The position numbers are program-made. This document shows, one piece after another, positions 9,001-15,000 of a stretch of 64,000 nt of DNA. The DNA comes from Escherichia coli (lineage in GTDB: Bacteria; Pseudomonadota; Gammaproteobacteria; Enterobacterales; Enterobacteriaceae): the NCBI RefSeq assembly GCF_045037415.1, contig NZ_CP173438.1. One strand, 5' to 3'. Position 1 is the first letter of the stretch. Each line of letters opens with the position of its first letter.

Positions 9001-12000
9001 GATTACATCATCAAAAATGCCGAGCTCTCCAAAGAACGCCGCGATATCTCCAAAAAGCTGAAAGCTATGGGCGAAATGAAAAACGGCGAAGCGAAGTAAT
9101 TCCCGTTTTATTCAATGAGGGTTGCCCGGCAACCCTCATTGCTCATTGATTCTTATCTGTGTATCACCGTCATCATTCTCATCTGAGAACCAATCGAAAT
9201 TAACAACAGCCTTCTTCTGTATGCAGCAAGGCAAAAAGTTCTGTAACTCCATTGTTATTAACTGCACTGGTTACTAACACGTTGTGCGCTCCAGCTTCCC
9301 GTAACCAACTTGTCACCAAAGATATTTGTTCCATGCTGGCTAAATCTGCTTTGGTTACTACTCCAATGACCGGGTGATTCATGGCCCGGTAGGGCGTTTT
9401 TACCTCTAATTCCTGCTTCAGCGCTGAGATTCCTGCTTGTTGCCGGAAAAGCAGGCACCTGCCGTCTGAACGGTATCGATCCGGAAGCGTATCTGCGCCA
9501 TATTCTGAGCATACTGCCGGAATGGCCCTCCAACCGTGTTGACGAACTCCTGCCATGGAACGTAGTTCTCACCAATAAATAAGCGTCAATACGGTGCTCC
9601 GTTGACGCTTACTTTAATCCGTTTTCTGAGCTTAGATTTTTCTGTTCCTACCCAGACCGTGGATTTGGAATTCATTTTTTGTCAGGTCAATGCTAATCGT
9701 TAAAACGGCCATAACGCACCTCCACTGGAAGGTTTATCAGTAATATCCTACCGTTGCTTCATGGTCGGGGCGTCCATTCCATTATTATCGGTTTTCCTTT
9801 CTGTTTATAAATGAAAACGCCAGCTGTATTCAGGCTGGCGTCAGGGGAAATGAAGCCTGTTGAGTGAGATTCACCGGTTCTGGTGCAGAAGCTGCAGATG
9901 GCGCAGGGTAAGGACATCTTCTCTTGCCTGCTTAATACAGGACAACAGTGCTGTTTCTGTGGTTAATGGCACTATACCCTGTATCACTGCATTGTCTTAC
10001 AGCAACTGGTGAGGGCTGGCATAAGTTGCCGGTGTTTCGGTAGAGTCACGGTCATCCACCACGCGGAGTGAATAACCGTTTTCAGCGGCCTTATTAATCA
10101 GTTCAGTGATATTAACACCATCAATGTCAACGACAATGTGCCCCATATCCAGCGCCTGTACGTTAACGCTGTCGGCTTCCAGTGTCATCATTTCGCCTCC
10201 GGATACTTACCCAGGGTAATGTTATTTACCGTTCTGTAATTGTCGCTGGTCATCAGGCCGGTCGCCCTGCGAGCCCGGAGGATATCGATGCTGTTTATTA
10301 ACTGAGAGCGGGTACAGGCGCTGAATCCCGGCTGGTCGGTACGCACCAGCGCGTATTTTTCCACGAGAAAGTTCACCGCATCACACAGTGAAATGCCTGC
10401 CTCAATATGCTGCTCAATCACACGTTCATCGGCAAACGGTGTGTCATTCAGTGTGAGGCCATAGTGCTGGTCCAGCAGTCGGGACAGCAGTATCTGCCAG
10501 ATTTCAACAGGAGACGGGCGAGAACTGGCCGCCTGCCCGGGTAATACAGGTAATGTTTTCATACTGAAGATTTTCCTGATATGCAGATATAAAAATGGAA
10601 AAGTGGCGTGGTGAAAACACCAGGCCGTAGCAGAAGGCTATTCTGGAGAGTTAATTTTTCATTTCGGGCGTCGGATAAACAGCCAGATAAACGTAACCAC
10701 AACTGCTGAGGGTATCGGCTTTGCAGGTCAGCCCTTTTGCATACAGCGTGACGGTATGCTGATGGCGGGGATTCAGTTCACCGCTGGTGAGCATGAGTTC
10801 CAGTTGTTTCATCAGCAGCGGAAAGGCCTGGTCCAGGTGGTACGCATCTGCATCGCTGAACAGGCCTCTGATACCGGCGCGGTCGGCAAGGTAATGCAAC
10901 CGGTTACCCTCCTGCACCAGACGTGCCCCGAAACAGGGCGTCACGGTGCAGGGCAGTCCCCACCAGAGGCGGTCGTTATGGTCGTCGGGATAATTTGTCT
11001 CATGGAGTTTGTCTGACACGATAAAGTCCTCAGGTCAGCCGGCGCGCAGACCGGCTTCGGTGAAGGTGTATTCGTTGATGAGAAGGGCCTCATCCACAGC
11101 GGCATCAGAGGTCAGCCTGTCGTACTCGTTTTCCAGCTGACGGTACAACCAGAAGGCCAGGTCGCGCAGGGCTTCGCTGACAGCGGCTTCCGCATCGGCT
11201 GTCATAGCCTGACCAGTCGGACTGTTCCGGGTAACAGTGATATCCATGCTGTACGGATGGCAGTAACGTCCCCGGTGGTGGATTTCAGCCTGCAGTTGCC
11301 AGAAGTTACGTTTCTGCACCGCCTGCAGGGCATCCGCGATACGATGGAGTTCATGGTCCTGTGTGGCATACTCCCGGAGCCTTCTGGCTGTTGCTGGCTG
11401 CCAGTGCCAGCGTCCTTCAAAACAGGCTCCGTCCCCCTGGCTGCAGAATCCGCTGAACCAGATGCACGCCTCTTCCATAAACCTGCCGTTGCTGAGCCGG
11501 AAAACGCGCTGGCGGAGGTCAATTCCGAAAATGCCACAGACCGCCCTGAAGTCCTCATACACGTTTTCATACCAGTTGCTGTCAGCATGATGCTGACGGT
11601 ACCAGTCGCGGGCTTTTTCCTGTGCGGTGGAGGATAGCTCATGCAGTGTATACACGGTGGTGGTGATAATTCTGCTCATCAGAATGCCCTTACTGACTCA
11701 GTTCAGAGTGACGCTCATCAGCCGGACATACGGGCCAAAACTGTCCTTACGGCGTTCAGCAAACACGGCCAGCACACCGGGAATATCCTGCACTTCACGA
11801 CCGGTATACGCTTCAGCACTGCCGTGCCAGCGGTATTTGCCGGTACAGAACGGAAAAAGACGGGATGCAGGATGCTGACGGTGAATACGCATGGCTTCGC
11901 CACGGGTGATGATTTTCATAGTGGGATACCTCTGAAGACAGAAGATAAAAGTGAAAACAGGTGTGATGTGGTTGTGACGGGTTAAAGCAGACCATGTTCG

Positions 12001-15000
12001 GCAAAGGAGAAAACCTGGCTGCCACCGACTATCAGATGGTCCGGCACCCGGATATCCACCAGGCCCAGTGCCTGTACCAGACGTTCGGTGATAAGCCGGT
12101 CTGCCTTACTGGGTGTGACTTCACCGGACGGGTGATTGTGCGCCAGCACCACGGCTGCGGCATTGTGATACAGGGCGCGTTTAATCACTTCCCGGGGATG
12201 GACTTCCGTGCGGTTGATGGTGCCGGTGAAGAGGGTTTCACCGGCAATCAGCTGATTCTGGTTATTCAGATACAGCACCCGGAATTCTTCACGCTCCAGT
12301 CCCGCCATGTTCAGAATCAGCCATTCCCGTGCCGCACGGGTGGAGGTGAAGGCCACGCCGGGTTCATGAAGATGGCGGTCCAGGGTTTTCAGGGCCCGCT
12401 GAATGAGGCTGCGCTCTCTGGTTGTCATTTCTCCGGGCAGAAAGGAAATCTGTTGCATTGTTCCGGCCCCCTTTCAGTCAATAATGCGCATAATGGCGCT
12501 GCATTCCGGATGCTGCAGGGCGTAATCCCGCAGACGGTAATAATGAACCGTCATGGCATAACACTCCGTACGGCAGGCGTGATGACTGTACGTCATCAGA
12601 CAGGCGGCAATGCCGGCGGCTTCCGGGCTCATTTCAGCGCGGTTACCGTTCATGGCATTGAACAGTACCCATGTTTCGTCATCATAGTCATCCGGTTCAG
12701 GGGCCATAAATGCCCCGCCGTTGTTCAGGGTGTACAGATTCCAGATACCACCGCAGTAGTTTTCGCACAGACGGTCCATCCAGCCGAAGACACGGGGCTC
12801 CAGGGTCACCCACTGTGGAATGAGGCCAAAATGCTGCGGCCAGAAGCTGATGCGCTGTTCATCAGGGACTATGGTGGCAACCAGTTGTTGCAGGCCAGTC
12901 TCCGGTGCACAGGCCGAAGAGGTGGTGTTCTGAGACAATGTTTTCATGTATGAAATCCTTGTAATGTGAATAAATGAGAGGGAGTAAAGGTCGGGAGCTG
13001 GCAACATCACGTTCATCACTGACCGTGAGACCCGGTAATATCAGGGATGAATGATATTCGGCTGAAATTCCGGACAGCCGTACGCGTAACCGTTCCGGTC
13101 ACAGACGGATGGCCAGATGCCATTGCCTGTACTCAGTCTGCACAGACTGATTTCTCCGGGACGGTAAAGCAGACGGGTACACCAGGCGCACAGGTCATCA
13201 TCAGAAATGGAACGACACCCCGGCAGCGCCTCCGGGGCGTCGGGTGATTCTGGTGCCTGAATCACGCCTTCAGGGACATGCTGCATCAGCGCAGGCTCTC
13301 CAGCAGCGTTTCTGCCATTACCCACAATGCGCGGTTGAGCTTAATATCGGTGTCGATGCTGTGAATGGCACGGGTGTGGATACGTTTTCCTTTTGCACTG
13401 CGACCGGAAATCCCGCCTTTCAGCATATTCTCCTGGATGGTCTGATAAGTACTCCACAGGTCCTTACCGTAATCCTCCCGGCGTCGTGGCGTCAGAATGT
13501 CGGCGGTGGTGACGGGCCGATGTTCGTCACCATAACGGTAAGTCAGTGCCGCCTGTGCCAGCGCCTGGCGTGCCGGTGGCGGCAGAATCAGCGACTGCAT
13601 GGCATCACGCTTCTCCTCTATCCGGTCAAACACGCCCACCACCTCGTAAGCCCCTTCAATGACTCTGTCCACCACATTTCCCCGGTGCGGAACACGCACT
13701 TCCCCCAGAGACTGACCACAGACGCATCCGTTCTGGCAGACGAACCTGAAGTAACCCGGCAGCATCTGGTAGCTGGAGGTACCGTCATGAGAGTTGAGCA
13801 GAATAATTTCAGGGACATGTTCTCCGTTTATCTCTCCGTTACGGCGCAGACGCAGCATGTGTTTGGTGTATTCCCGGCGGTCCGGGTCACGTACGCGGGT
13901 CTGGCAGGCGAAGAATGGATGAAAGCCTTCCCGCTGCAGGCTTTCCAGTACGGTGATGGTGGGGATGTACGTATAGCGTTCACTGCAGGAGGTATGCCGG
14001 TCTTCACCGAAAATACCCGGTACATGGTGCATCAGTTCTTCGTGTGTCAGCGGACGGTCACGGCGTATCTGGTTTACATAACCAAAACGACTGGTTAATC
14101 GCATGATTTGCTCCTTATCGGTGGTTAAGATTTACTGGTGTAATAAATGAAAAAAGCCACGTCTCCCGGAGAAGACGCGGCCTGACGGGTGAAATGAATG
14201 AGGTTTATTGTCTGAGAAGCCTTTCACTGGCGAGCCACGCATTAAGCGGCTTTCCGGCAACAATGGCTGGGGCTGTATTTACCTTTGATATTAATAATGT
14301 GCAGAGAAACGCATGGTTTACTCCTCAGGTTTTAAGTTTGTCCAGAGCCACAACGACAGGTTTTCCGGATGTGTCGATGACTCCTACCGTCGGTACGCCA
14401 TTTTTGATTTCGAAGAACGGTTTGTTGCTACCTGAGCACAGCTGGTTGTCTTTGTATTCGAGCATCTGTTCTTTCCCGGTTTTCAGGTTAAGTACCGAGA
14501 CAGTGTAGTCGTAACACCAGGCACCACCACGTTCAAGCACGAAAACATAGCTGTTATCTTTATAGTTGAACGGATTCTTCGTCTGGCAATTCATACCGTC
14601 AATCTCAGTACAGGAAAACGCCTCTGTAGTATTAACGTATTTGATGTTGTTTGGCAGTTTTACTTGTTTCGCCGCAGCGAAGACAGAGAACAGAATAGTT
14701 ACAGCAACGAGTAAAGTTTTGATAAAAGTTTTCATGACAGACTCCTTAAATTAGTTAACCGCAGCTACGTAGTTTTTCACCAGATACGCGAATTCATGCA
14801 CGCCAATTTCGCCGAACCAAACCAGGTAGGCCGGGTCATCTAAACCAAAGTAGCGGTAGCCAACGACTTCATGGGTTTTTGGGTTATAGAGTGTTACGAT
14901 AAAGTCCCAGCCGCAGGTATTGGCTTTGCAACCGTCGCCCTGGAGCCAGACTGTACCGTTAATGGTTACTGGCGTTACGTTTCCGCCAGGGCCATCCATA

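Follow-up and report, generated by a model that had tools for sequence, protein, structure and literature searches.

A 64,000-nucleotide stretch of the Escherichia coli contig NZ_CP173438.1 (assembly GCF_045037415.1), hereafter the window, carries a CP4-type island whose CbtA/CbeA toxin–antitoxin module contains a gene for a 214-residue protein, referred to here as X (11035–11679, minus strand), between the DUF987 gene and the antitoxin gene cbeA. Analysis of this gene and its relatives shows that it is an ordinary intact copy of an already catalogued gene of CP4-type islands, not an unusual insertion; it appeared to be an extra gene because the decayed island of strain K-12 served as the reference. 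The family to which X belongs is specific to mobile elements and spans islands of enterobacteria, conjugative elements of Alphaproteobacteria and lytic phages.

The X protein of the window is identical to the RefSeq coding sequence WP_000086752.1. In RefSeq, X is named "hypothetical protein", "antitoxin of toxin-antitoxin stability system" or, in recent genomes, "DUF8835 domain-containing". The exact protein is recorded under the antitoxin name on at least 1,000 contigs, and its sequence sits in a 1,118-member cluster of the same name. X resembles the proteins so named over its full length: copies that are 93–96% identical to it are annotated either as DUF8835 (about 95% identity) or with the antitoxin name, and they share its length and its place between the DUF987 gene and the YeeU-family antitoxin gene. 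Under four database hits (H7, H11, H13 and H23), the RefSeq product line is misspelt as "DUF8835 domain-containing pootine". The DUF8835 name is known from RefSeq product lines only, and the copies of Pfam-A and NCBIfam that were used contain no model matching X.

In keeping with the preliminary description, which had seen no recognisable motif in the 214-residue protein, a profile search of X returned no match in Pfam-A, NCBIfam or PADLOC, and 70 members of its family likewise gave nothing above noise. X does match phrog_5162 (E = 5e-37), a PHROG family of unknown function. We found no experiment or paper behind the names "antitoxin" or DUF8835, nor any literature on X. By sequence comparison, the antitoxin name, which is widely propagated and is carried by X in older annotations, is unsupported by similarity to the adjacent antitoxin. 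The type IV antitoxins of the CbeA/YeeU/YafW/YfjZ group (PF06154) share an operon with X and are occasionally fused to it in frame, but they are approximately 105–125 residues long compared with 214 for X, and the two have no sequence, profile or fold similarity; X as a homologue of CbeA was ruled out (hhalign probability 0.2%).

A census of complete E. coli genomes was used to establish how common the gene is. Megablast with X as the query gave matches in 2,100 of the 5,426 genomes, at up to eight places per genome. A gene-body query, comprising the portion of X that is absent from the scarred loci described below, matched 2,809 places, which are spread over 1,958 genomes (36%). In the same set, cbeA occurs at 13,156 places in 4,855 genomes and the DUF987 gene at 12,889 places, so that approximately 21% of E. 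coli cbeA modules, about one in five, carry X. Every E. coli locus that was opened exhibited the order DUF932, antirestriction, RadC, DUF987, X, YeeU-family antitoxin, CbtA, DUF5983, DUF957 and DUF4942, and islands with this order occupy several different chromosomal sites. The gene had been described earlier as an unusual addition to the module, a view that would fall if it proved to be a standard, annotated member of such modules. Its recurrence at the same position and its RefSeq annotation show that it is exactly that.

The same description had given the K-12 arrangement as one without the 214-residue gene, and indeed all three K-12 modules lack X. The K-12 CP4-44 island shares with that of the window its chromosomal locus, with yoeF, tmaR, yeeA and sbmC adjoining, as well as its gene order and the length of yeeW, but it lacks X, the DUF932 gene and the antirestriction gene. 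The distal ends of the two islands are decayed in exactly the same way, with yeeW cut to 64 residues and only a fragment of the DUF957 gene remaining (9871–9963 in the window).

In CP4-44, the 73-bp spacer between yeeT and cbeA (L004, NC_000913.3, 4040–4112) retains the ribosome-binding site and the first eight codons of X. The retained part reads ATGAGCAGAATTATCGCCACTACC, with codons for MSRIIATT where the window X has MSRIITTT, and runs into a 16-codon remnant ORF (MSRIIATTGPFLADFL, followed by a stop). A second, independent and widespread scar is present at loci such as L003, at which the final 113 nt of X remain, immediately behind the DUF987 stop codon. X remnants were also looked for in the CP4-6 and CP4-57 islands of K-12, and none was clear. 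The deletion scars in K-12 and other strains show that X is ancestral to this module lineage and was lost more than once. K-12 CP4-44 represents the derived state, a deletion derivative that once had X, and the textbook arrangement of the module is therefore one that still bears the scar of the missing gene.

In the window, nine ORFs run in the same direction on the minus strand between positions 9997 and 14104, all of them where the preliminary description placed them. The first gene of this conserved island operon encodes a DUF932 protein (13286–14104; PF06067, E = 2.4e-51), and an identical RefSeq sequence is named DUF932 domain-containing protein. It is followed by a small hypothetical gene for a protein of 81 residues (13041–13286; WP_001164966.1), which can be extended to 94 residues from an upstream GTG (13041–13325) and has no match in Pfam, NCBIfam, PHROG or PADLOC. 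A GC-rich, terminator-like hairpin (13242–13213) lies inside this small gene, between the DUF932 and antirestriction genes. The antirestriction protein has a KlcA/ArdB-type Antirestrict domain (12474–13019; PF03230, E = 4.5e-37), and the RefSeq start of its gene is at 12947 where the ORF extends to 13019. The next two genes encode a RadC-like JAB-domain protein, YeeS (11982–12458; PF04002, E = 1.3e-44; TIGR00608), and the DUF987 protein YeeT (11698–11919; PF06174, E = 1.5e-40).

Downstream of X lie the genes for the type IV antitoxin CbeA (YeeU), with a GTG start (10651–11019; PF06154, E = 7.1e-53), the toxin CbtA (YeeV; 10188–10562; PF06755, E = 7.8e-58) and a truncated YeeW of 64 residues that consists of the DUF5983 N-terminal domain only (9997–10191; PF25638, E = 2e-29). 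In K-12, the orthologous CbtA inhibits polymerisation of MreB and FtsZ and is counteracted by CbeA (PMC5371832). The earlier assignment of the order from DUF932 to YeeW to the canonical CP4-type arrangement is confirmed by the Pfam matches and by the same order in other E. coli islands: a PF06154 gene directly precedes a PF06755 gene on the same strand, with DUF932, antirestriction, RadC and DUF987 genes upstream and the DUF5983 gene (yeeW) downstream. X is separated from the DUF987 gene by 18 nt and from cbeA by 15 nt, and each spacer contains a Shine–Dalgarno-like sequence. A consensus scan of the minus strand from the RadC gene to cbeA identified no promoter-like or terminator-like site, which is consistent with a single transcript, and an Rfam scan of positions 9000–15500 returned no RNA elements.

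The frequent deletion of X in E. coli, together with the flagging of some copies as pseudogenes, is what would be expected of a spurious or decaying ORF that is retained by linkage alone. This explanation is extremely improbable, and we rejected it on the basis of selection and conservation. Pairwise dN/dS values among six E. coli alleles are 0.15–0.34, which shows that X is a real gene under purifying selection. Its length of approximately 214 residues is kept, and the E. coli protein is 58–63% identical to its relatives in Alphaproteobacteria. An exhaustive HMMER search (E ≤ 1e-3) returned 3,512 clusters at 50% identity, nearly all of them approximately 214 residues long and covered over their full length. 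The members with a named source belong to E. coli, Salmonella, Citrobacter, Klebsiella, Tistrella and Methylosinus. Several longer members (P0137, P0155, P0165, P0238 and P0133) contain no recognisable additional domain.

An AlphaFold2 (AF2) model of X, calculated from a 70-sequence alignment, is a single compact α/β domain with a pLDDT of 96.4 and a pTM of 0.89. Structure comparison with this model yielded no solved relative, and its matches in BFVD were to uncharacterised phage proteins only (best E = 1e-7). Eight residues are invariant in both bacterial and phage members (L15, G52, D83, G84, A85, H141, L182 and G210), and a further seven are nearly so (A23, G77, F78, Q81, G82, Y139 and F206). 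They give two conserved motifs, SGFxSQGDGA and Y-x-H (Y139-x-H141). The family is acidic, with a median pI of 4.8.

A scan of one genome per species identified at least 489 relatives of X, of which the best 80 are almost all from Alphaproteobacteria and are 57–63% identical to the E. coli protein. Among 112 plasmids with a match to X, 41 are typed as conjugative. On alphaproteobacterial plasmids and at chromosomal loci, X lies in a co-directional cluster that encodes ArdC (ArdcN plus MPTase-PolyVal domains), a ParB_N protein of approximately 700 residues, a conserved 138-residue protein, X itself, a strawberry-notch-type helicase of approximately 1,440 residues, a Toprim protein and a YAcAr/DUF2493 protein. 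The 138-residue partner, which begins with MADYFTHFSCLLDVGT and belongs to no Pfam family, is encoded at L010 (7592–8008), L007 (6592–7008), L008 (6598–7008) and 28 other loci. Its stop codon overlaps the start codon of X in 28 of 31 cases, an arrangement that suggests translational coupling. The partner is a homologue of neither CbeA nor the DUF987 protein (hhalign probability <1%).

Homologues of X were also found in 56 phage records, including those of lytic phages: Caulobacter jumbo phages, Acinetobacter Saclayvirus, Pseudomonas phage Lana, the rV5-like Av-05 and RaK2. In these phages, X is one of many small hypothetical genes, early or accessory in type, that are arranged in extended arrays, and some of the copies in Caulobacter jumbo phages lie within the terminal repeats. 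As is characteristic of genes of anti-defence islands or leading regions, X is clustered co-directionally with antirestriction and toxin–antitoxin genes on mobile elements and has homologues that are shared with phages.

This genomic context points, with somewhat less than even confidence, to X serving mobile elements as an establishment or anti-defence factor, that is, a protein that interferes with the host. It would be expressed, along with antirestriction proteins, when an integrative island, a conjugative element or a lytic phage enters a cell. X would then be a soluble, acidic α/β protein that works through a conserved site formed by the SGFxSQGDGA hairpin, with its invariant D83, and the Y139-x-H141 strand, and this site would bind or process a host factor or a small ligand. 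Toxin–antitoxin modules would adjoin X because the slot just downstream is a cargo slot, rather than because X is needed for their function.

The leading regions of conjugative elements are anti-defence islands that contain antirestriction genes, toxin–antitoxin genes and many uncharacterised families, some of which are shared with phages (Samuel et al. 2024, PMC11541004). Iyer et al. (2017, PMC5512222) count RadC, ArdC-N, ParB, strawberry-notch ATPases and CbtA among the components of conflict proteins in conjugative elements. The company of X resembles those islands and the conflict gene sets of conjugative elements and phages: KlcA-type or ArdC antirestriction proteins, RadC, ParB, SNF2-like or strawberry-notch ATPases, toxin–antitoxin modules and uncharacterised families occur in both. 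X itself was not found by name in either paper, as far as their text could be searched.

Several points weigh against an establishment or anti-defence role. Searches of Pfam, PADLOC and folds gave no homology-based link between X and any defence system, and no experimental link was found. Specifically, X has no sequence or fold similarity to the characterised antirestriction and anti-defence families (ArdA, ArdB/KlcA, ArdC, Ocr and other solved examples), and it matches none of the PADLOC models of anti-phage defence. Because X is often lost in E. coli, the island can evidently be kept without it. Placement of X in a leading region of the alphaproteobacterial elements is presumed. Moreover, guilt by association is weak evidence, an acidic pI is non-specific, and the conserved Asp and His could equally be structural.

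These two residues also bear on a possible enzymatic activity of X, such as that of a metal-dependent hydrolase or transferase relying on D83, H141, Q81 and Y139. Such an enzyme could act on nucleic acids, nucleotide signals or host proteins, and its role need not involve defence; it might, for instance, process DNA together with the neighbouring RadC, ParB, helicase and Toprim proteins, a proposal that overlaps with the anti-defence role. Strictly conserved polar residues in two motifs, kept in bacteria and phages alike, are consistent with catalysis, as is the presence of nucleic-acid enzymes (RadC, ParB_N, the strawberry-notch helicase and Toprim) among the neighbours of X. However, only two of the polar residues are invariant and X resembles no catalytic fold or family, and we regard an enzymatic role as unlikely.

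The main rival to the anti-defence role is one within toxin–antitoxin systems, in which X would be a third component: a regulator, a chaperone, a second direct antitoxin of CbtA or a general toxin–antitoxin modulator. What comes directly after X varies, and it is often a toxin–antitoxin pair, the family of which differs among elements. In E. coli loci the pair is CbeA/CbtA, and X always shares an operon with cbeA and cbtA. On alphaproteobacterial plasmids and at chromosomal loci, X may instead be followed by an MbcA/ParS antitoxin with a RES protein (L009, 7701–8800; L071, 2797–3896; L075, 2085–3184; L092, 906–2017), by a TacA-like antitoxin with an adjoining GNAT-like ORF that has no Pfam match (L067, 6715–7593; L072, 2526–3452) or by a DUF6088/AbiEi-like antitoxin (L037, 4159–4752). 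At four further loci (L058, L069, L086 and L094), an ORF of the same RES-type cluster, not itself scanned, lies 154–1,239 nt downstream of X. A DUF4326 gene or a lone GNAT gene occupies the slot at L030 and L076, and in 39 of 80 loci the strawberry-notch helicase follows X directly.

Four unrelated toxin–antitoxin families are therefore found directly downstream of X in different elements, and in some enterobacteria X is placed inside the pair. In Klebsiella michiganensis (L013–L015, 7610–8996) and Salmonella diarizonae (L040, 5633–7086), the order is DUF987, CbeA, X and CbtA, and at the Salmonella locus the stop codon of cbeA overlaps the start codon of X. If X were a modulator, both the variety of neighbouring families and the CbeA–X–CbtA order would be explained. 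A role of this kind is also what one would expect from the legacy name "antitoxin of toxin-antitoxin stability system". By contrast, most relatives of X have no toxin–antitoxin neighbour, and the toxins that do lie beside it differ in mechanism. X is missing from approximately 79% of E. coli modules, among them that of the K-12 pair on which experiments have been done.

The junction between X and cbeA provides further evidence on this question. In alleles with the 15-nt spacer, such as that of the window (X stop codon, 11035–11037; spacer, 11019–11034), cbeA continues in the reading frame of X, and a change of the TGA stop codon of X to TTA or TGY generates in-frame X–CbeA fusions of 342–343 residues. 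Such fusions have arisen on several allelic backgrounds (P0002, P0003, P0008, P0016, P0019 and P0022; L001, 5001–6032), and one copy is flagged as a pseudogene by PGAP. In the window, the TGA of X is followed by C. Termination at UGA-C is weak in E. coli, so low-level natural read-through from X into cbeA is conceivable. The fusions favour a functional association of the two proteins. However, an AF2 model of a natural fusion, calculated from a partly paired alignment, has a pTM of 0.60, low confidence in the CbeA half and no confident interface, and it leans against contact between X and CbeA. Considering all of these observations, a toxin–antitoxin role for X seems improbable, and an anti-defence or establishment role is the reading that we favour.

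The finding in the window matters little in itself, X being common and already annotated in CP4-type islands of E. coli. The family, by contrast with this single copy, could reasonably be screened by experiment for anti-defence or toxin–antitoxin-modulating activity because of the number of its members, its presence in conjugative elements and in early regions of phages, its confidently predicted fold with no solved relative, its invariant Asp and His and its recurrent adjacency to toxin–antitoxin genes. It is possible, although rather doubtful, that X founds a family with no solved fold relative whose members are new effectors of anti-defence or modulate toxin–antitoxin systems in general.

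The surroundings of the module were compared with those in strain SK1144, whose sequence matches the window exactly over the first 15.1 kb and in which X is again WP_000086752.1. The two otherwise near-identical sequences differ by an IS21-family insertion in the window (15101–17679), with istA and istB ORFs at 15184–17486. This insertion is accompanied by a 7-bp duplication and breaks a gene for a 225-residue hypothetical protein. A second insertion in the window relative to SK1144 measures 5.2 kb (29246–34484). Upstream of the module in the island, genes for a patatin-like phospholipase, an RdcB-family protein and a dynamin-family protein lie on the minus strand at approximately 18150–22503 (15564–19917 in the SK1144 locus L104), and this trio may be a defence-type cluster.

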